Source of the DNA: a virus
Taxonomy: Duplodnaviria; Caudoviricetes
DNA length: 64,000 bases
Virus record (IMG/VR): IMGVR_UViG_3300021399_000122
Location: 32,001-96,000 of that record
Reading direction: 5' to 3' (one strand)
Shown piece after piece: positions 2,697 to 48,930 of this stretch (positions are counted from its first letter, which is position 1; each line of letters opens with the position of its first letter). Under the pieces are notes generated by a model. The model made no database searches and was not told where the DNA came from. It saw nothing but the letters and a program-made list of their open reading frames with translations. The position numbers and the translations under genes were made by a program.

Positions 2697-3088
2697 TTAC
2701 GATTGAGAAAGCAAGACAGCTTAGAAAGCTGATTGAAAAGGCATCTGCATCACTGGACGATGAACAGGCATTAAACGGTGTTGAACTGTTCCCTAAGTGG
2801 AGCGAATCAGCGAGCTATGCAGTTGGCGACAGAGTTCAGTACGAAGGCACACTGTATAAGTGCTTACAGGCTCATGATGCACAGGCTGATTGGAAGCCTT
2901 CTGAAGCCGTGTCTTTATGGGTTAGGGTTGACGATCCTTCCATTGAATACCCTGCTTGGATTCAGCCTGTAGGAGCACAGGATGCATATCCGAAGGGAGC
3001 AAAGGTCAGCCACCTTGAAAAGCACTGGATCAGCGATGTTGATGGTAACGTGTGGGAGCCGTCAGTTTACGGGTGGTCTGAAGTTTAA
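2693..3088 (+). CDS. Carbohydrate-binding module (CBM5/12, ChiC-like) protein
   Basis: W..SASYAVGDRVQYEGTLYKCLQAH...W.P...LW plus a second AYPKGAKVSH...W.S...NVWEP module. Confidence 0.8.
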   Translation: MITIEKARQLRKLIEKASASLDDEQALNGVELFPKWSESASYAVGDRVQYEGTLYKCLQAHDAQADWKPSEAVSLWVRVDDPSIEYPAWIQPVGAQDAYPKGAKVSHLEKHWISDVDGNVWEPSVYGWSEV

Positions 3089-3104
3089 AGGAAACTTTAA
3101 ATCA
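3086..3104 (+). repeat. Gene-boundary element TAAAGGAAACTTTAAATCA
   Basis: Starts at the stop codon of 2693..3088; perfect inverted repeat TTTAAAG-GAAA-CTTTAAA at 3084-3101. Confidence 0.75.
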
Positions 3105-3119
3105 GAGAATTACAGGGAC

Positions 3120-3380
3120 GCTTCGCCTAGTCAAAGCCGTGATCCGTGGCTGAAGTAACGGATGGAGCGAAGCAAAGGCAGACTGTTGGGAGAAGGCTTG
3201 GTCTGCTATAATTAGCATTGTGTTGCAACTGATGTTAGATACGGCTTTCGGTCACGATTACTAACAGAGAAAGACAAAGGGCGTCTTTGAGACGTCAATG
3301 ACCGAATTTAAAATCTGAGGCCGGATGTGCGCACATCTGGGGCAACCTGCCGCCTGAAGATGCATAGTGCAGTCCTCAGA
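3120..3380 (+). ncRNA. Candidate structured non-coding RNA, family unknown
   Basis: No long ORF; at least 8 complementary segment pairs and one pseudoknot-type pairing (see findings). Confidence 0.55.
3204..3212 (+). promoter_or_regulatory. Possible extended -10 promoter (TGCTATAAT)
   Basis: Exact TGnTATAAT in an intergenic region; no convincing -35. Confidence 0.35.
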
Positions 3381-3409
3381 AACTTTAAATCACCAACCCA
3401 AAAGACTTT

Positions 3410-3432
3410 GGCCATCATATGATGGCCTTTTT
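3410..3432 (+). terminator. Rho-independent terminator
   Basis: GGCCATC-ATAT-GATGGCC followed by T5. Confidence 0.7.
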
Positions 3433-3511
3433 AATTGTAAACAAATTTGTAGAGCGAGCTTAATCAGCCCGCCCTTTTATTTATTTCTTAAATTTATGAA
3501 AGGAAGTAATT

Positions 3512-4000
3512 ATGGCAAATTTTAACAACCCCTATGTACCCGTACCCGGATGGCCGCAGTCTTCTGCGCTCGCCTACCCCGCTTCGGGTCAGCCCTACCA
3601 GCAGATGTCTTACACGCAGCCGTATCAGGCGCAGTACGCATCGCCTCAGATGTCACAGGCAAATTATGCCTACGCAAACTCTGTTAACAACAAGAATATT
3701 ATCTGGGTCGCCGGTCAGGCTGGCGCTGAAGCGTATCAGATGGAACCGGGCTCGCGGGCTGTTTTGCTCGACTCTAAAGATCAAGTTTTCTACATCAAAG
3801 TGGTTGGCCCGGACGGACGGCCCGAACCACTTATGGCATTTAAGTATGAACCTTTGAACCTGAACATGCAGAATGAGAGTTCACAGGCTTCGCAGGCAGT
3901 TGACACAAGCAACTTCGCCACGAAGGATGATCTGAACCAGATCATGGAATATGTCAAGAAGCTTTCTCAGGGACAGAAAGGATCTAAGACTAATGGCTAA
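3512..4000 (+). CDS. Hypothetical protein, gene 1 of conserved 5-gene phage module
   Basis: Q/P/Y-rich N-terminus then IIWVAGQAGAEAY...VLLDS...FYIK. Confidence 0.8.
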   Translation: MANFNNPYVPVPGWPQSSALAYPASGQPYQQMSYTQPYQAQYASPQMSQANYAYANSVNNKNIIWVAGQAGAEAYQMEPGSRAVLLDSKDQVFYIKVVGPDGRPEPLMAFKYEPLNLNMQNESSQASQAVDTSNFATKDDLNQIMEYVKKLSQGQKGSKTNG

Positions 4001-8314: not shown

Positions 8315-11300
8315 ATGAGCAATAACGGTAGCAGAGACCTACATTACCATGCCGGTGATATTAATATTGACCTCAATGCAAAATTAAAAGCAGAATTAGC
8401 CGAGGCCCGTGCGGATTTAACTGCCACAAAGGCGCAGCTCGAGGCTAACAATCAAAGCTTAGAAACATATAAGATTAAAGCGGAAGCGGCGGCGGATTCG
8501 CAACAAAGACTGAACAATCAGATCGCAGCCTTGCGATCATCACTTGCCGCCGCCGAGGAAGGTCTCGAAACACTTAAATACGAAACAAATTTCGATCAGT
8601 ACGCAGCTACGGCAAAAAGAGCGGTGGCTGAGTTTAAGGCGTTTTTAACAACCGTAAATTTCAGTGACGTCGATGGAACCTGGCACGACGACGTAAGCCT
8701 GTGGCTTGAAGATCTTGAGAACGGTGCAATGACCGCTGGGCAGGCAATTGCCGAGTTCAAAGCAGAATACACATCATATTTGAATGAAGTTTCTTCTGGC
8801 GGAGGAGGCTTAGACTTACAATCATTTCAATCCTTGTTGGCTACGCTAGAAGAACTAAAAGATTCGCTCGAAAGCGTACTGGAAGAGGTTCGTTTAATCC
8901 GCGAGGAAGGCGTTACCACCGTACAGTCGCAGAGCGGCGTCGGTGGCGTCCTTGAGCAGCTTCAACAGGCCACGCAGGGACTATCGGAAGAATCTAAAGA
9001 GGCATATGATACAATTACCAAACTCGTTACAGGGCTGAACGATTATGGAAATATCGATGCCTCTAAATTATATGCAATAACTAATGCGTTCATTAGTTTG
9101 CAAAATATTGGAAGCGGCACATTTTCAACTAAGACAGTTGAAAACATTATTAGCATGGCTAAGCAATTGGCCGCAGTTGGCCAAGCCGGCCCGATCACCC
9201 TGTCGCTTGATGTTAGTGCCATTGATGGTATTAAGGTCAGCAAAGCGTCCTTAAAGGCACTTGCTGAAAATCTGCCAGAGATTTCTAAGGCGGATGGCGA
9301 TCAGCTCCAAAAAATATTCGCCGCCGACCCTACAAATGGCATAAATAATATTAATGTTAGTAAGGCGAGCCTGGAACATCTCGCAACGAAGTTGCCTGAG
9401 ATTACAAAGATCAACTCTAAAAAGCTCGCAGATATACTTAACGTAAATACAGCCGGGATCAACAGTTTAAAAGTAAGTAAGGCATCTGTAGAAAACATCG
9501 CCAATCTTGCGCGGGCTGCTCAGATATTAAAAGAAAACAATGTAGACCTAACACTAAAAGGCGACCCTAGCGAAGAGCTTAATAAGATAGCGCAGAAGAT
9601 GAGCCAGATCGGCGATGCGGCTGAAACTGCCGCTGACGCCGTCAACGATCTATCGGGTGCATTAGGTTCTCGGGATCTTGAGCCTACCGAGCCAGATGGC
9701 TACAGCCCATTAAATGGAAAAGACTTGGCGGGTAGTGTAAAGAGTGCTTTAAGGTTGCAGGAAGTTCCCGCAGAAAATATTAAAGAAGTTACCAAAGCGG
9801 TTGCTGGAATGCGTGGCGAATTTGTCAGCGCAACAGCGGCATGGCGTGATTACGGGGAAGAAGGACGACACGTCACATCAGTTGTCGTACAAACGGCTAC
9901 TGAGGCGGAAAACGGTATCCAGAAGCTGACTTCACAGGTTGTCGAATTCAAAAGAAATGTGAACGAAGAGACCGGAGAGGTAACGTGGACGTCTAAGCTT
10001 GCCAGCGGAATAGAAAAAATCAAAGCAGTTGCAGACAGTGCAGCGCAATCGACCGATAAGTTAATCAAGCAAAGTGACGCACTCTCCCTAGCCAAGTTGG
10101 ATGATCTTCGTTTAAATGCCGAAAGGGCGATCCAATCAGCATTACGGTCGGGTGTTGGCGACGATAACGATTCTATTGATGCTTTGCGGACGCTTCAGTC
10201 TGTCCTTGGCGATGTGGAATCTGAGTTGAGAAATGCAGATTATTCGCAGAGTGCCTTTAACGAAATCACAAAAGAAGCAAGCGCATTGATTAGTGTTCAC
10301 TCCAAGCAACTCGGTTTTGCGGTACAACAGCAAAAGGAAGAAGCGGCGGCTGTCCGTGAGGCTGAAAAAGCAAAGGCGGCTCTCGTAGATAGGACTAAAG
10401 CTCAAGCAGCCGTAGAGGCAGAGCTTAATAAAGTAATCGGGCCGCTCTATGGCGACGCTATTAAAAACGGCATTTCAGAGAGCGACCCGGGCATGCAGCA
10501 GTTGCAGGCTTATGCATCTGAGCTCTACGCGCTTTATGACTGGATGCAGAATGACGCCAATATGACACAAGCGGAGTTCGAAGAGCATCTTAAAAATATC
10601 AAAGCTTACTATTCAAGTTCAACATCGGCAGTCAAGCAAAGTATTGCTGTTACCAAAGAAGCGGCAAAGGCCGAAAAGGAATTAAATAAGAATCTTGCCT
10701 CTTCCGCGAAAGTTCGCGAATCGGTTGCATCTGCTGTTGAGAGGTATAAGAAGGCAGAATCGTCTTCCGACGAAAACGTTCGGCAGAGTTATTTGAACAT
10801 CCAGTCTCTGACTAACAAGCTGGCAGTCCTTGAAACGAGATATAAAAAAGGAGACATCTCGGCAGAGCAGTTCAAAAAGGGAATTGCAGACGCGAACGCG
10901 GAGCTTCGTAGGAGTTCTCAGTCGCTTGATGACGCTGGCTACGGTGTAGACGGCCTGTCAACAAAGTTCGCAAGGCTCACGCAGGAGCTCGGCCGATTCC
11001 TCTCCCCTTTCCTCCTTGCGCGTCAGGCATGGCAGACCATCAAGCAGATGGCGAACGTGGTCATCGAATTGGAAGATGCGTTTGCCCAGTTGCAGATTGT
11101 AACCGGCGCAACAGATAAGGAACTCGAGGAGTTCTATTCGACAGCTTCTGATATCGCAACAAACCTCGGTAAGAGCATCACCGATATTGCGAAGTCTATT
11201 GAGGTCTTCTCAAGATTGGGTTACTCCCTTCCGGACGCAACAGTGCTTGCAGAGTATGCAACCATGTTGTCAAATGTTGCGAGCGTAACAACTGACCAGG

Positions 11301-14300
11301 CTACTACCGGTCTCACCTCTATCATCAAAGGTTATAACATGCACGTCGAGGACGCCGAACACGTCTCCGACGTTTTAGTTAGCATCGGTCAGAAGTACGC
11401 GGTCTCTGCTGGTGAAATGATGGAGGCCTACGAAAAGGCTGGTGCGGCATTAGCGGCAACCAACACATCATTTGATAAATCGGCGGCGTTAATTGCTGCG
11501 GCAAACGCTGCAGTGCAAAACTCGTCTATTGTAGGAACTGCCCTGAAAACAATTTCTGCAAGAATCAGAGGTTCTAAAACAGACCTCGAGGAGCTTGGTG
11601 AAAGTACAGAAGACCTCGCCGACGGTTTCTCTAAATACGCAAAAGAAATTAAGGCATTAACCAATGTCGACATCATGGTTGAAGGAACAACCAATCAGTT
11701 CAAAGACCTGTACGACATCATGGATGAAATCGCCGAGGTATGGGACGACCTCACCGATACACAACAAGCAAGAACCGCCGAGATCCTTGGTGGCACAAGG
11801 CAGTTGCAGGTTATTGCATCTATCATCAACAACTGGAAAGACGCGCAAGGCGCTTATGTGGACGCGCAGAATTCGGCTGGCGAAGCCGCCCGCGCAAACT
11901 CCATTTATATGGATACTGCAACGGCACACATGAACCAGTTCAAGGCCGCCTTCCAAGAATTAGCACACACAATTATTGATAGTGATTTCCTTAAGCAGGT
12001 TATTGACATTGGAACGGCGATGCTTAAAGCGGCAGACGCCGTTACAAGGTTCATTGAGTCGGCTGGAGGATTGGCGCCTCTTTTAATCAATATTTCCGGG
12101 TTGCTCCTTGTCCTAAGAGGAAATGACATCATCAAATTGCTCAGCAAGGCTGGCACTGCTATGGCAAGCCTTATTAGTACCGTTGGTACTTGGCTAGGGA
12201 CGTTAACAACGGCTGGCGCAGGTGTTATTACGACACTGGATATGGTCGAAGTAAGCGCAACATCCGCAGCGGCTGCAACTGCGCCACTGACAGGAATCAT
12301 TGGTGCGGTAATGGTTGCTGCATCTGCACTTGCCGCAATGGTTATCAGAACAAAGAACAGCATTGCACAAGCTCGTGAAGAGACTATTAGAGCTGGTGAG
12401 GCAGCGGCCACCGAAAGTGCTGAGCTTGTAAACCTTACACAAGCGTATGAAGAACTTGTTAAAGTTGGTTCTGACAGCGCCGCAATTATTGAAGCTAGAG
12501 ACAAGGTACTTGATAAACTGCATGTTGAGTATGACGAGCTCCAGCGGCTGATTGCCGAGTACGGATCATATGAAGAGGCAATTAAACACGCAGCAGCGTC
12601 ACAGGTAGCAGCACAGCGTGCTACATTGCAAGGCGCGTATAACAACGCGGCAAAGAATCTTACGTCGAGCGGATATGAGAGTGCTGGGGCAGCGCACAGA
12701 ATTGATTATGGCGACAACCCAGCTGCAGATAGACGTGCGATCAAAGCTTTGTCTGGCGCAGGATATATAAGCGGCTCTTCCAACGGATTCGGAGGGAGCG
12801 TCGTTAACTATAACCTTGGGGATCTTTCTACAACCGAAGGCATCATCGAAGCGTATGGCAGACTGCACGACATGATGAATATGTTGATCGATGATGGCCA
12901 TGCAAATACAGCCGTATATCAGGATCTTTATAATCTGTATACACAACTCCAAGTCGGTGTAGATTCTTACAATAGCGCACTGAACAACTTAATCGCAAAC
13001 GAGCTGCAGCAACAATACCTTGAGCAAGGTGTTCCTCAGACTGCCGCCGAGTATTCCAACCTCCGTAATCAATTGATCTCAACAGTAATGGCATCGGATC
13101 AATTCTCTGGGTCTATGGCCGAGGCCGGTGCAGTTGTTGACGACTTCCTTGGCAAACAATACGGGCTCGAAGAATTCTCTAACGGCATTCAAGGTGCATT
13201 TAGTAATATCACAAGCGGAGCCGACGCAATCAATGCAGTGCATGATGCGTTTAAGGGTGTCAAGGATACAATCGATGGAGTCACGAGCTCATTGCAGGCG
13301 GTCAGCTCGGTACAAGATCTTGTAGCCAATGGCTTTGTAGTCGATGCTCAGAAAGCTATGGAACTTGCGGCCGCCTACCCCGAAATTCTTGATAACGCAA
13401 CTGTTACCGCAGAAGGTCAGCTTCAATTAAATGAAGCGGCGGTAAACTCGTTTATTGAAGGCAAAGAGAGCGAGATCAACGCGTCAATTGACGCAAAGAT
13501 TGCCGACCTTCGAGCAGACGAAGCTGTGTTGGAGGCGAAGAAGGAATTCGCAACAGGTCAATTACAGATGGCTCAAGCGGTTGCCGAGGGCGAAGATGCT
13601 ATTACGGTATCGCAGTTAAAGAATAGACTTGAAAATTCAAATAAAGTTGTCAACGCCCTTATCCAGATGGGGTACGATGAGGCAACAGCTTATCAGATGG
13701 CGTTGGAGGCAATGTCTGAAAACGTTAGTATCTTCGACGGTAACGTAGGTGATGCGGCGCAAAATATTGCTGACAACTTCGCATCTGCCTCTGAAAGTAG
13801 CGCCAACTCTCTGAACACCAACACGATCCTCATGAATTCCAACATTAACAAGATTACCTCTCACGCCCACGAAGCGGCTAAGGCCGTGAATGGAATCGGA
13901 AGTGGTAATGTTGCTGGTAACGTTTATGATGATGGTGGAGCCGGATCTGCGCATGTCAAAAACTTTAACAAAGCCACAAATAAAAGGGCGCTTGTCAATG
14001 CTGCAGTCAGAGAGAGCAACCGCAACAATGTCGACCTTCAAAATCTGATTTCTAACATTAAAGCGGATATCAGCGGGTACACCGCAGCGATCGGCGCCAT
14101 CCACGGCCAGATTAGTGCGTTAGAGGGGTTGCGCAACTCTGCAATAAGCGGTATTCGAAATTATAAGCCGAGCTCATCTGGCGGCTCCGGAGGTTCCGGT
14201 GGCGGTGGTGGAGGTGGCGGTGGCGGAGGCGGAGGTTCTGGCTCTGGCTCTTCTGAGAAAGAAGAGACTTGGTTCCAGAAACAATACAAACTCCACCAAC

Positions 14301-15784
14301 ACTACGTCAATATGGATCAGGAGACAACCGCCGACTTCCTGAAATGGTTGGAAAAGGCCTATAAGCAAGCGTACAAGGAAGGTATCATCACACTTGATGA
14401 ATACTACAAGTACGAAGAGGAAATTTACAACGGCTACAACAAGATTAAGGAAGCGGCCAAGTCTACCTTTGATGCGCTCGTTGACTACCGCGTCAAGATG
14501 CTTAAGCAGGATCGTGAGAATCAGAAGGATTCAATCAACGACCAGCTCAACGACCTCAAGGATTTCTACAACAAGCAAAAAGAAATGTTGCAGAAACAGC
14601 AGGATGAGGAAAAGTATCTTGATGAGCAGACGGAGAAGCGAAAGTCTGTAAATGACATTAAACAACAGATTGCACAACTCCAGTTCGATACGTCTGCTTG
14701 GGCACAGAAACGTCGTCAGGAGTTGCTGCAGGAACTGTCTGACGCCGAAAAGGATCTGCAGGATTTTGAAGATCAGCATGCTTTAGAAGAAGCTTTGAAT
14801 GCTCTGGATGAAGCATATAATGCCGAAGAGGAAAGACTCAACAAGCAGATCGAAGCAATCGATGAAGTGTTGAATGATCCTAACGCCCTTTACAATCAGG
14901 CGCTCGCGGATATCAAAGGCAACACAGAAGATTTGTTTAAGGCGTTCATCCTGTTTAATAAAAAGTACGGCGATGGCGACGACGAGACAATCAAGAAGCT
15001 GTGGGAAGAGGCTTTCAAGAACAATGAGGACTATAAGAAGATTGTCGGCAAGTATTACGAAGATACGAAGATCGGCAATTATACAGGATATAAAGCCCCT
15101 ACCCCGCCGACAAATCCTCAGCCTCCGACCAGCAGTAGCAGTTCTTCAAAGAGCAGTAGCAGTAGTAGCAGCTCTTCAAGCAGAAGTTCCGCCCCTTCCC
15201 TTTCATCTGGATCAACCGTACAGGTGAAAACGTCTGCGACACATTTCAGCCCCAAGAGCGGAAGCGTGCGCATGGCGTCATTTGTACCGGGCGGTCAATA
15301 CACCGTGTATCAGACTAGCGGCAATGAAGTTCTCATTGGCCGTGGCGGTGTATATACTGGATGGATTTATCGCTCTGACATTGTTGGCTATAAAAAGGGA
15401 ACGAAGAACGCGACACCTGGTCTGCATAAGATTAACGAGGAAGGCACCGAAGCTATCTTCTCATCTGGTGACGGCAACCAATACCGCATGTTCAACGGAG
15501 GAGAAAAAGTTCTCAATGCAAAGGCTACAAACTTCCTGTATGAGTTTGCGATGGCCGGCGCAGAGATTCTCGACAAGATGCGTGGCGCATCTAAGGATGT
15601 GTTCAGGGGTGTGGGCACTATCAATCAGCCCATTGATATCAACATGGGTGACATTATTATTAATGGAAATATTGATAAGCAGAGCGTTTCTGACATCCGC
15701 CGTGCACAGCGTGAACAGGTTAACGATGTCCTTAAGGCATTCAATAAATATCAAATCACTCTCTACAGAGGGGTTAGAAAATAA
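8315..15784 (+). CDS. Tail tape measure protein
   Basis: 2489 aa, Ala-rich helical; TP901-type core (LEDAFAQLQIVTG...FSRLGYS...GTALKTISARIRG); central hydrophobic segments; precedes the distal tail gene. Confidence 0.92.
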   Translation: MSNNGSRDLHYHAGDINIDLNAKLKAELAEARADLTATKAQLEANNQSLETYKIKAEAAADSQQRLNNQIAALRSSLAAAEEGLETLKYETNFDQYAATAKRAVAEFKAFLTTVNFSDVDGTWHDDVSLWLEDLENGAMTAGQAIAEFKAEYTSYLNEVSSGGGGLDLQSFQSLLATLEELKDSLESVLEEVRLIREEGVTTVQSQSGVGGVLEQLQQATQGLSEESKEAYDTITKLVTGLNDYGNIDASKLYAITNAFISLQNIGSGTFSTKTVENIISMAKQLAAVGQAGPITLSLDVSAIDGIKVSKASLKALAENLPEISKADGDQLQKIFAADPTNGINNINVSKASLEHLATKLPEITKINSKKLADILNVNTAGINSLKVSKASVENIANLARAAQILKENNVDLTLKGDPSEELNKIAQKMSQIGDAAETAADAVNDLSGALGSRDLEPTEPDGYSPLNGKDLAGSVKSALRLQEVPAENIKEVTKAVAGMRGEFVSATAAWRDYGEEGRHVTSVVVQTATEAENGIQKLTSQVVEFKRNVNEETGEVTWTSKLASGIEKIKAVADSAAQSTDKLIKQSDALSLAKLDDLRLNAERAIQSALRSGVGDDNDSIDALRTLQSVLGDVESELRNADYSQSAFNEITKEASALISVHSKQLGFAVQQQKEEAAAVREAEKAKAALVDRTKAQAAVEAELNKVIGPLYGDAIKNGISESDPGMQQLQAYASELYALYDWMQNDANMTQAEFEEHLKNIKAYYSSSTSAVKQSIAVTKEAAKAEKELNKNLASSAKVRESVASAVERYKKAESSSDENVRQSYLNIQSLTNKLAVLETRYKKGDISAEQFKKGIADANAELRRSSQSLDDAGYGVDGLSTKFARLTQELGRFLSPFLLARQAWQTIKQMANVVIELEDAFAQLQIVTGATDKELEEFYSTASDIATNLGKSITDIAKSIEVFSRLGYSLPDATVLAEYATMLSNVASVTTDQATTGLTSIIKGYNMHVEDAEHVSDVLVSIGQKYAVSAGEMMEAYEKAGAALAATNTSFDKSAALIAAANAAVQNSSIVGTALKTISARIRGSKTDLEELGESTEDLADGFSKYAKEIKALTNVDIMVEGTTNQFKDLYDIMDEIAEVWDDLTDTQQARTAEILGGTRQLQVIASIINNWKDAQGAYVDAQNSAGEAARANSIYMDTATAHMNQFKAAFQELAHTIIDSDFLKQVIDIGTAMLKAADAVTRFIESAGGLAPLLINISGLLLVLRGNDIIKLLSKAGTAMASLISTVGTWLGTLTTAGAGVITTLDMVEVSATSAAAATAPLTGIIGAVMVAASALAAMVIRTKNSIAQAREETIRAGEAAATESAELVNLTQAYEELVKVGSDSAAIIEARDKVLDKLHVEYDELQRLIAEYGSYEEAIKHAAASQVAAQRATLQGAYNNAAKNLTSSGYESAGAAHRIDYGDNPAADRRAIKALSGAGYISGSSNGFGGSVVNYNLGDLSTTEGIIEAYGRLHDMMNMLIDDGHANTAVYQDLYNLYTQLQVGVDSYNSALNNLIANELQQQYLEQGVPQTAAEYSNLRNQLISTVMASDQFSGSMAEAGAVVDDFLGKQYGLEEFSNGIQGAFSNITSGADAINAVHDAFKGVKDTIDGVTSSLQAVSSVQDLVANGFVVDAQKAMELAAAYPEILDNATVTAEGQLQLNEAAVNSFIEGKESEINASIDAKIADLRADEAVLEAKKEFATGQLQMAQAVAEGEDAITVSQLKNRLENSNKVVNALIQMGYDEATAYQMALEAMSENVSIFDGNVGDAAQNIADNFASASESSANSLNTNTILMNSNINKITSHAHEAAKAVNGIGSGNVAGNVYDDGGAGSAHVKNFNKATNKRALVNAAVRESNRNNVDLQNLISNIKADISGYTAAIGAIHGQISALEGLRNSAISGIRNYKPSSSGGSGGSGGGGGGGGGGGGGSGSGSSEKEETWFQKQYKLHQHYVNMDQETTADFLKWLEKAYKQAYKEGIITLDEYYKYEEEIYNGYNKIKEAAKSTFDALVDYRVKMLKQDRENQKDSINDQLNDLKDFYNKQKEMLQKQQDEEKYLDEQTEKRKSVNDIKQQIAQLQFDTSAWAQKRRQELLQELSDAEKDLQDFEDQHALEEALNALDEAYNAEEERLNKQIEAIDEVLNDPNALYNQALADIKGNTEDLFKAFILFNKKYGDGDDETIKKLWEEAFKNNEDYKKIVGKYYEDTKIGNYTGYKAPTPPTNPQPPTSSSSSSKSSSSSSSSSSRSSAPSLSSGSTVQVKTSATHFSPKSGSVRMASFVPGGQYTVYQTSGNEVLIGRGGVYTGWIYRSDIVGYKKGTKNATPGLHKINEEGTEAIFSSGDGNQYRMFNGGEKVLNAKATNFLYEFAMAGAEILDKMRGASKDVFRGVGTINQPIDINMGDIIINGNIDKQSVSDIRRAQREQVNDVLKAFNKYQITLYRGVRK

Positions 15785-32442: not shown

Positions 32443-32480
32443 GTTGCGTATACAGCTGCTGCGTATACGCAACTTTTATT
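32443..32480 (+). terminator. Terminator of the lysis module
   Basis: GTTGCGTATAC / GTATACGCAAC 11-bp stem plus TTTTATT. Confidence 0.7.
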
Positions 32481-35126: not shown

Positions 35127-35157
35127 TTAACTTTCCGGTAACTTGCAAGACTGTGAT

Positions 35158-35430
35158 TTAAAGTTTCCTTTCTTTTGCTCTCAGTTCTGCTCTGCGCTTC
35201 TGATCTTGTTCGTATAACAACTTTTTATACGCATACGCTTCACCGAGTAACACGCCCAATTCAAATTCCTTTGATTCATGTCCATCACGATAATACTCCA
35301 GTATTGAAGCAACATAGTTGATGTCCGCTTCCAGTTTGTAGATATTACCGATCAGATAATCCTCTGTGAAACTGCGCTGTCTTTCTTTGCGCTCAGAATA
35401 GAGAAGGTTAACATGTTCTTGTTCTGTCAT
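35158..35430 (-). CDS. Hypothetical protein, runs element to element
   Basis: ATG overlaps one element and TAA overlaps the next. Confidence 0.7.
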   Translation of the reverse strand: MTEQEHVNLLYSERKERQRSFTEDYLIGNIYKLEADINYVASILEYYRDGHESKEFELGVLLGEAYAYKKLLYEQDQKRRAELRAKERKL

Positions 35431-48601: not shown

Positions 48602-48684
48602 TTGCCTCCTTTTAGTAGTTTTTAGAGTTTTAAGAGGTCTTTAAGGTGTTGCTTTCGTAACTTTTGCCTAAACCCCGTTTTTAG

Positions 48685-48805
48685 TAATCACACGGTAAGG
48701 ATTTGCACCTTACATGAAAGAGTTTATTGACATCGAGTGCGACAATCATGTATGCATCCATGCTCTTTCATCACTCCCAGCGTCTACCTATTCCGCCACG
48801 TGTAA
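48685..48805 (-). ncRNA. tRNA-like RNA with a large insert replacing the anticodon arm
   Basis: Acceptor TTACACG/CGTGTGA, D arm GCG-GAATAGGTAGA-CGC, T arm GTAAGG-TGCAAAT-CCTTAC; no canonical anticodon arm or CCA. Confidence 0.65.
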
Positions 48806-48930
48806 TTTACTCTCGTTTCAACCTCTTAAGCCCTATAACTTAGACTGCCTTTCGCAGCCTTGTTATTCAGCAGGATTTCTCTTTCTGAATATTTATATTA
48901 TAGAGCATAAGGATTGATTTGTGTAGTAAT

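Follow-up and report, generated by a model that had tools for sequence, protein, structure and literature searches.

Small structured RNA modules predicted on a gene-free cassette of a tailed phage

Described phage RNAs and the locus

Clusters of tRNA genes in phages carry other small stable RNAs, e.g., the species 1 and 2 RNAs of T4 (rnaC/rnaD) and the tRNA-like stable RNAs of T5. To our knowledge, the purpose of the T4 species 1 and 2 RNAs is still unknown some 50 years on. In a different arrangement, a promoter and a terminator enclose a short structured transcript upstream of a long phage operon, as with the put RNAs of HK022 and the λ pR'-tR' leader. Here, we analyze a gene-free stretch at positions 3105-3393 of a 64,000-nucleotide (nt) DNA sequence (hereafter, the window), which corresponds to bases 32001-96000 of a 104,848-nt IMG/VR virus record. 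This stretch is predicted to be a chain of small folded RNA modules, which we call A, B and C, rather than a single RNA.

The stable RNAs of T4 and T5 are, like the modules, short structured non-coding RNAs (ncRNAs) among phage tRNA genes, presumably released by tRNA-processing enzymes, and module A is placed likewise in related loci L204, L298, L294 and L130. They differ in that the cassette with the modules in the window stands alone in the virion-gene region and has no tRNA next to it. We liken the two by placement, and claim no relation in sequence or structure. The put and pR'-tR' transcripts are likened by layout alone, since the modules recur without terminators or operons, and relatives with the same operon lack the modules. 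ROOL (RF03087) and GOLLD (RF02032) RNAs are also phage-associated, structured and often near tRNAs, and ROOL was first found in rumen samples. However, these RNAs are 500-800 nt long, and the gathering scores of their models are not reached in the window or in the homologous loci. Finally, a family of anticodon-less tRNA-Leu-like phage RNAs, described below, resembles the modules in being phage-only, in belonging to no Rfam family and in occupying the same RNA islands, but has its own fold, with an acceptor stem, a Leu-type D arm and a T arm.

The nearest published idea to modules A and C, by analogy, would be the theta ribozymes, which are minimal ribozymes resembling that of hepatitis delta virus (HDV). 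They are small pseudoknotted RNAs that follow tRNA 3' ends, mostly in gut-associated Caudoviricetes, where they are proposed to help release neighboring RNAs at these ends; their fold is that of HDV, a nested double pseudoknot whose J4/2 contains a catalytic C (PMC10879173). The modules are similar to theta ribozymes in their small size and adjacency to phage tRNA genes, but neither module has the HDV helix order, and no HDV-type Rfam model matches.

In what follows, L-numbered loci are related sequences, mostly IMG/VR and JGI metagenome contigs. One is the Ruminococcaceae metagenome-assembled genome (MAG) RUG14376, whose 'RUG' label we take to mean a rumen genome.

Conserved folds in modules A and C

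All eight pairings listed in an earlier note on this DNA are present exactly where it placed them. However, structure in the lone window sequence is only mildly above chance, and it is the comparative evidence that carries the case. Dinucleotide shuffles average 2.15 perfect complements of at least 7 nt, and 14 of 500 shuffles have 7 or more; the number observed is 7. Minimum free energy (MFE) z-scores are -1.63 for positions 3089-3430, +0.25 for 3105-3250, -1.95 for 3240-3310 and -2.06 for 3311-3385. These z-scores, a check that the note had proposed, are mild, and one is positive.

To identify relatives of module A, we used sensitive blastn against the assembled loci, which gave short matches in three tRNA-rich phage loci. 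A pattern scan with the module's hairpin loop then yielded 16 loci; besides L002, which is identical to the window in the 5' part, 13 of these hold the entire module. The resulting alignment (A4) has 14 phage sequences. The predicted features are as follows.

3109-3211, + strand: module A, conserved structured RNA (alignment A4, covariation, RNAalifold, covariance model)
3115-3119, + strand: conserved 5' GGGAC (alignment A4)
3120-3126/3167-3173, + strand: closing stem P1 (covariation and RNAalifold)
3135-3138/3148-3151, + strand: pseudoknot stem S1, AGCC/GGCU (covariation)
3142-3147/3158-3163, + strand: inner stem S2 (covariation and RNAalifold)
3178-3183/3201-3206, + strand: last hairpin P3, with the 20-nt loop CUGUUGGGAGAAGGCUUGGU (covariation and RNAalifold)

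Among the 14 sequences, 96.9% of cells are paired, and 15 of 23 pairs exhibit compensatory changes. None of 500 shuffles is as good, and slid partners pair in at most 39%. The covariance model (R2) scores 107.5 bits over module A of the window. Three pairings in the earlier note, GCTTCGC/GCGAAGC, ATCCGT/ACGGAT and GCAGAC/GTCTGC, are therefore conserved with compensatory changes. The closing stem, for example, is GCUUCGC/GCGAAGC in the window and GAGCCAC/GUGGCUC, GUGCGG/CCGCAC, AUCUGAC/GUCAGAU, GUCCGGU/GCCGGAC or others elsewhere, and the inner stem in the window is AUCCGU/ACGGAU. The 20-nt loop region is nearly invariant.

Module A probably also holds an H-type pseudoknot, as the GGCU of S1 sits between the two strands of the inner stem and pairs with AGCC; L130 has AACC/GGUU in place of AGCC/GGCU. 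RNAalifold, which draws no pseudoknots, offers a nested GCC/GGY, which is broken in the window and L130. The last hairpin and invariant loop of module A are found by themselves at L296:958-1036 (- strand) and L303:4558-4636 (+ strand), some 20 nt before a ribosome-binding site and start codon, and may be a separable sub-module. In L302, module A lies between repeats of ATGGCACTTTA.

Pattern scans of IMG/VR, JGI metagenomes and GTDB species genomes gave 12 further copies of the 3' part of the stretch, many coding-sequence coincidences (GNLxPED) having been discarded. The alignment of module C (A2) thus has 13 sequences, and its predicted features are listed below.

3305-3391, + strand: module C, conserved four-way-junction RNA (alignment A2, RNAalifold, covariation, covariance model R1)
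3305-3311/3385-3391, + strand: P0, an A/U-rich extension (single-sequence folds)
3314-3320/3374-3380, + strand: P1 (RNAalifold and covariation)
3321-3329/3332-3340, + strand: P2 (RNAalifold and covariation)
3341-3343/3349-3351, + strand: P3 (RNAalifold and covariation)
3352-3360, + strand: J3/4
3361-3364/3368-3371, + strand: P4 (RNAalifold and covariation)

RNAalifold gives a four-way junction for this alignment, and so the pairing TCTGAGG/CCTCAGA with three enclosed hairpins, recognized in the earlier note, corresponds to a conserved fold. The pairs are formed in 98.5% of cells, and 8 pairs are changed on both sides. Again, none of 500 shuffles is as good, and partners slid by 1-3 columns pair in at most 48%. 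Variants of the closing stem include CUGAGG/CCUCAG, ACGGGG/CCCCGU, GAUGGG/CCCAUC, GCUGGGG/CCCCAGC and CCACGGGG/CCCCGUGG. The junction core comprises 35 nt, and GGYAACCUGYCRCCYGAAGAUGCAUAGUGCAG is invariant in the 13 sequences. Single-sequence folds recover the junction in most members, with the closing stem lengthened to 10-17 bp; in the window, this extension (P0) uses a repeated boundary sequence, the half box discussed below. Covariance model R1 scores 91.3 bits at module C; it detects the module once in each locus and nowhere else in this genome. Both modules contain many G-U pairs, and therefore the folds belong to the + strand.

The two folds match no established family. Using Rfam 15 (4227 models), the sole match in the whole window at the gathering score is a tRNA at 32480. 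At E-values up to 10, positions 2900-3600 gave nothing within 3105-3391 except a MicA match driven by the terminator. The homologous loci L028, L048 and L054 gave no match at E-values up to 1, and the other homologous loci, at the gathering score, gave just tRNA and a group I intron elsewhere. ARAGORN, run on 2891-3772 with introns allowed, found no tRNA or transfer-messenger RNA (tmRNA), and RF00005 likewise had no match. As neither program found a cloverleaf with an anticodon arm, we rejected a tRNA or tmRNA identity. The core sequences of modules A and C were not found in the literature searched, and a keyword search on phage RNA motifs gave nothing relevant. The idea of an unrecognized structured ncRNA is thus borne out by covariance-model searches and covariation, two of the checks that had been proposed for it.

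The absence of a long open reading frame (ORF) was also confirmed. Three genetic codes were checked in all: under table 11, the stretch contains no ORF of at least 60 amino acids (aa), and under table 4 or with TAG read as Q, frames of at least 60 aa that overlap 3089-3440 all enter from the flanks. Because only flank-derived frames reach into the stretch, we rejected a hidden ORF in these codes.

Between the two conserved folds lies a segment that is common to L002 only.

3213-3304, + strand: module B or linker
3213/3232, + strand: hairpin TAGCAT/ATGTTA
3247/3299, + strand: stem TTCGGTCA/TGACCGAA, which encloses the hairpin GGCGTCT/AGACGTC (3280/3290)

Neither blastn against the loci nor exact-pattern scans gave a homologue of module B beyond L002, and exact-pattern scans with other parts of module A likewise returned L002 alone. 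As L002 is nearly identical, the module B pairings are candidates from the window sequence. The tip hairpin in L002 has a 3-nt deletion and three substitutions with pairing still possible, and this change is the sole hint of selection on a module B structure.

The cassette and the distribution of its modules

The window encodes a 2489-aa tape-measure protein (gene 8315-15784), tail proteins, integrase-family proteins, a DNA polymerase and a DnaB-type helicase. Given these tape-measure, tail, integrase-family and replication proteins, the source is predicted to be a tailed and probably temperate phage, of a rumen type. Directly upstream of the RNA block are genes for a calcineurin-like phosphoesterase, a BspA-type leucine-rich-repeat (LRR) protein and a CBM5/12 protein. 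Downstream is a tightly packed 5-gene module, with functions unassigned, in a co-directional long operon that begins at 3512 and includes the tape-measure gene. No DNA similar to the RNA region or to the first 12 kb of the window was found in the GenBank phage collection.

The block is bounded as had been proposed, by a full and a half copy of a repeated box, and is followed by a terminator. A TGnTATAAT-type motif is also present.

3087-3104, + strand: full boundary box AAAGGAAACTTTAAATCA; start of homology with L002; overlaps the TAA stop (3086-3088) of the upstream CBM5/12 gene
3379-3392, + strand: 14-nt half box GAAACTTTAAATCA, which repeats 3091-3104 exactly and in direct orientation; shares bases with the 3' strand of module C P1/P0; homology with L002 ends here
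36-53, + strand: box copy with 3 mismatches
1254-1271, + strand: box copy with 1 mismatch
35154-35171, - strand: exact box AAAGGAAACTTTAAATCA
3204-3212, + strand: extended -10-like motif TGCTATAAT, a consensus match only; overlaps the 3' strand of module A P3
3410-3432, + strand: intrinsic terminator GGCCATCATATGATGGCC plus T-run; 7-bp stem with 5 G-C pairs, then TTTTT; also apparent in the predicted folds

The sole long block common to this genome and L002 is 3084-3393, which extends from the full box to the half box with 93.9% identity over 311 nt. Within it, positions 3084-3283 are 100% identical and positions 3284-3393 are about 83% identical. This break in identity at 3283/3284 implies that the halves have separate histories, with a recombination joint inside the block.

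We also compared the downstream side, using 80 phage loci with the p259 gene of the p162-p90-p259-p155 module. None of the 80 has module C within about 4 kb, and none of 55 of them (L214-L268) has module A. Conservation among the ten best-matching p259 loci covers p162-p90-p259-p155 and does not extend to the phosphoesterase, LRR and CBM genes. In L214, L216, L219 and L220, a conserved 'DCTVRAI' gene directly abuts the p162 homologue; in L215, the same slot contains a box (GAAAACTTTAAATCA), a hairpin and a terminator. The cassette slot is thus real, as relatives keep the flanking genes without the RNA block, and the earlier suggestion of cargo on a discrete cassette holds. On these comparisons, the block of about 300 nt is predicted to be a mosaic accessory cassette, one unit of material inserted in this slot. 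It is comparable to a phage moron in being present here and absent from the same slot in relatives; its own terminator is clear, while the promoter is a consensus match only.

The boxes at 1254, 3087 and 35154 (- strand) overlap TAA stops of the preceding genes, and boxes also end three neighboring protein-coding cassettes. Exact ACTTTAAATCA boxes are beside RNA modules or in that slot in L002, L034, L215 and L302, and boxes with one mismatch in L004 and L304. In L042, a box (ACTTTAAATCACCAA...) is followed directly by a gene, with no RNA cassette. The boxes may serve in recombination, in RNA processing or as insertion targets, in which last case the exact 14-bp direct repeat could be read as a target duplication.

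Outside the window and L002, no locus combines modules A and C. Module A is without module C in 12 loci, and module C is without module A in L003, L004, L007, L008, L026, L028, L034, L046, L048, L054 and L068. As far as we searched, the predicted modules are confined to phage contigs and metagenomes, with one copy of module C in the Ruminococcaceae MAG. The exact module C core has one occurrence in 185,579 species genomes, and among 151 genomes of the MAG's family, module C was found in 1 (the MAG itself) and module A in 0.

Large phages, with contigs of 119-178 kb, carry module A within their tRNA/tmRNA arrays. The module stops 3-9 nt short of tRNA-Phe (L204, L298) or tRNA-Asn (L294, where it comes after tRNA-Ile(UAU)), and is near a phage tmRNA in L204 and L130. 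A tRNA-type T-arm and acceptor end lie 5-6 nt before its GGGAC in L204 and L298, and in L295, L299 and L300 the module is flanked by anticodon-less tRNA-Leu-like RNAs. The large phages with module A also encode tmRNAs (L130:6451-6796, L204:4254-4603) and tRNAs with a CUA anticodon (L294:2787-2862, L304:3545-3623). The latter, labelled 'Pyl' by ARAGORN, are amber suppressors, and so hint at TAG recoding in these phages.

Module C adjoins tRNA-like RNAs in 5 of 13 loci (downstream in L002, L003 and L004; upstream in L007 and L028), at a distance of 7-17 nt in four loci. Elsewhere, it lies before or after assorted genes, and no conserved protein neighbor was found in the 13 loci. A tRNA-like RNA of the anticodon-less family is also present in the window at 48681-48811 (- strand), just downstream of the DNA polymerase gene. 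It has an acceptor stem, a GGAAUAGGUAGAC D arm and the T loop UGCAAAU, and a long stem replaces the anticodon arm. This family occurs in at least 120 IMG/VR loci, and is called by neither ARAGORN nor Rfam. Among 100 loci with the tRNA-like RNA, three have module A and none has module C, which implies a shared RNA-island habitat and no fixed pair.

Beside module C, there are also phage-specific tandem repeats of 9-20 nt in 2-4 copies (TACTCGAAA, GATCGTTCAA, TTGATCACTGAAATCAGC and ACAAACTTGC), namely at L004 (- strand) ~1290-1320, L028 840-930, L034 (- strand), L008 1760-1830 and L054 540-620. These repeats look like protein-binding iterons or operators.

Explanations for the RNA chain

Judging from fold and location, modules A and C most likely represent new families within a general class already known from phage tRNA islands, that of small structured RNAs. 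For the locus as a whole, we favor an accessory cassette of about 300 nt that carries a chain of small structured RNA genes, and is neither a single large RNA nor a gene leader; we assign this explanation a probability of roughly 0.55. Transcription of the array, on the + strand, would read through from the virion genes upstream, start from TGCTATAAT at 3204 or do both, and would stop at 3410-3432. The transcript would be cut in its A/U-rich linkers into stable RNAs of about 70-100 nt, much like the small stable RNAs encoded alongside tRNAs in phage tRNA clusters. These RNAs may act in trans via their invariant sequences, namely the 20-nt loop in module A and the 35-nt core of the module C junction, and could bind a conserved partner, from the host or the phage, that takes part in translation or RNA processing.

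The locus adds two well-supported RNA families, one pseudoknotted and one with a four-way junction, whose invariant cores are experimental handles, to the many unnamed small structured RNAs that phage tRNA islands are increasingly found to harbor. The modules travel as a short cassette between otherwise unrelated phages. If either is catalytic or binds translation or RNA-processing machinery, it would represent a new phage route to manipulate the host. If they are mere stable passengers, they would still be useful for RNA family catalogues and for phage annotation, where such stretches look like empty intergenic DNA.

It is important to consider several points that weigh against this explanation. 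The transcript ends, the processing and the stability of the RNAs are all predicted from sequence. Both families are small (13-14 sequences, and fewer independent lineages), so that the invariant stretches may be overstated, and module B would depend on one near-identical homologue, L002. The promoter match is no better than chance genome-wide: there are 21 matches to the consensus TGNTATAAT versus ~13 expected, and because this frequency is near chance, the match is uninformative on promoter status. An A/T-rich and often TATAAT-like stretch follows the last hairpin of module A in most family members, and TGCTATAAT aligns with TCTGCTAAAAT at a similar place in L004. The motif would be either a promoter for the downstream part or an A/U-rich linker after P3 of module A. 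In addition, module C is directly upstream of co-directional genes in several loci, sometimes with a terminator in between, which also fits a role in cis.

Moreover, no target or partner emerged. A likeness of GGUAACCUGCC to 16S rRNA, suggested by GGGUAACCUGCC, prompted a test for mimicry of this rRNA, against a Ruminococcaceae-family locus with the 16S gene and the start of the 23S gene. The test was negative, and we rejected such mimicry: the longest exact match is 9 nt, and 143 of 300 shuffled cores reach 9. Base pairing of the module A loop with the module C core, or of module C with the tRNA-like RNAs, was also dropped, as only 4-bp matches were found by eye.

Of the alternatives, the one that survives best, though we consider it unlikely, is that module C or the whole transcript is a cis-acting leader. 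It would be a put-like processive antiterminator, or of the λ pR'-tR' type, and would decide how far transcription passes the terminator(s) at 3410-3490 to enter the 5-gene module and tail operon. The order of elements suits such a leader: promoter-like TGCTATAAT, structured RNA, the strong terminator plus a weaker hairpin at ~3453-3487, and the long operon from 3512. The weaker, terminator-like hairpin, at 3453-3487 (GCGAGC...GCCCGC, with a T-rich run), was seen via a weak alignment to an L20 leader, and the terminator scan did not list it. Module C is followed by terminator-like hairpins and then genes in L028, L034, L046 and possibly L008, and its invariant core fits binding to a conserved target, e.g., RNA polymerase. 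However, what comes after module C in L002, L003 and L004 is a tRNA-like RNA and a gene, without a terminator, and in L007 the module faces a convergent gene. The 80 relatives run the same downstream operon without module C, module A resides in tRNA arrays rather than in leaders, and no alternative pairing was seen between module C and the terminator. We also rejected a riboswitch, given the lack of a conserved neighboring gene in the 13 loci and of an alternative pairing with the terminator.

It is also improbable, and ranks next, that one or both modules are self-cleaving or RNA-processing elements that punctuate phage RNA arrays, and thereby free neighboring tRNAs, tRNA-like RNAs or mRNAs. 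The short distances given above are consistent with this possibility, both those of module A from tRNA 5' ends (3-9 nt) and, in L204 and L298, from tRNA-type 3' ends (5-6 nt), and those of module C from tRNA-like RNAs. Both modules have covarying helices around invariant junction or loop nucleotides, module A would have a pseudoknot, and theta ribozymes show that small ribozymes flank gut-phage tRNAs (PMC10879173). However, no Rfam ribozyme model matches at E-values up to 10, and release of tRNAs is already explained by host RNase P and RNase Z. The helix orders also disagree: the HDV fold runs a b c c' a' d d' b', whereas module A runs x y z y' z' x' w w' and the helices of module C form a simple four-way junction. 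All 13 module C sequences have GU or GA as the two nt that join the last hairpin to the closing strand, which leaves no C at the equivalent of J4/2, and there is no upstream partner for an HDV-type P1 made of GGYAACC. The hammerhead core CUGANGA...GAAA...UH is also not matched. Module C has CCUGAAGA or CCCGAAGA (YGAAGA, with Y variable), and therefore the hammerhead's U4 is not conserved; moreover, the hammerhead-like stretch is followed by a hairpin and then GU or GA rather than GAAA, and the junction is four-way. We mapped the HDV-like/theta and hammerhead folds by hand, and neither fits the modules. A more specific version, which we find more doubtful still, is that module A, module C or both represent new catalytic or RNA-processing classes that cut or mark tRNA/tmRNA-array transcripts near tRNA ends, with the repeated ACUUUAAAUCA box as a processing or insertion site.

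The earlier note treated the stretch as one RNA of ~260 nt. We consider it very unlikely that 3105-3393 is a single integrated ncRNA of ~290-320 nt with long-range tertiary pairing, including the pseudoknot that the note proposed between AAAGCCGT at 3133 and ACGGCTTT at 3241. It is true that 3084-3393 was inherited as a whole in the window and L002, and that the MFE fold of 3105-3250 uses an AAGCCGU/ACGGCUUU pairing. However, that same segment has a z-score of +0.25, the identity break at 3283/3284 indicates separate histories of the halves, and modules A and C are separate in all other loci, where they were found in other phages. The proposed pseudoknot is not conserved: the other 12 module-A members have no partner region corresponding to 3241, and it is the local GGCU with which AGCC covaries. 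Since those members are without module B, the 3133/3241 pairing cannot be general.

Least probable of all is that the folds act at the DNA level, as single-stranded DNA signals or recombination or insertion sites on a small non-autonomous mobile element with a 14-bp target duplication at the box, for although exact 14-bp direct repeats flank the cassette, repeats flank module A in L302, boxes end three neighboring cassettes and the box in L042 directly precedes a gene, the cassette lacks terminal inverted repeats and has no associated recombinase close by, G-T wobble positions and the location in tRNA arrays point to RNA, and recombination between short shared boxes accounts for the repeats equally well.

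Some further observations concern the boxes and the cassette region. A conserved small ORF of ~50-60 aa (...YFYKADEFPEVVVNERHELKSLANSCHIHLP...) follows the box in L034 (- strand), within the first 200 nt, and occurs in the same accessory slot in L217:2937-3092. A second unit consisting of a terminator, TGCTATATT, a structured RNA and a terminator is present at L090:11503-11810 (genome 30503-30810), in the same cassette region and some 1.2-1.5 kb ahead of the window start; the first of its terminators has 83% identity with the one after module C in L028 and L034. In addition, the virion-gene region of the same phage contains a group I intron (Rfam RF00028, 56.1 bits) at L090:2205-2584 (genome 21205-21584).

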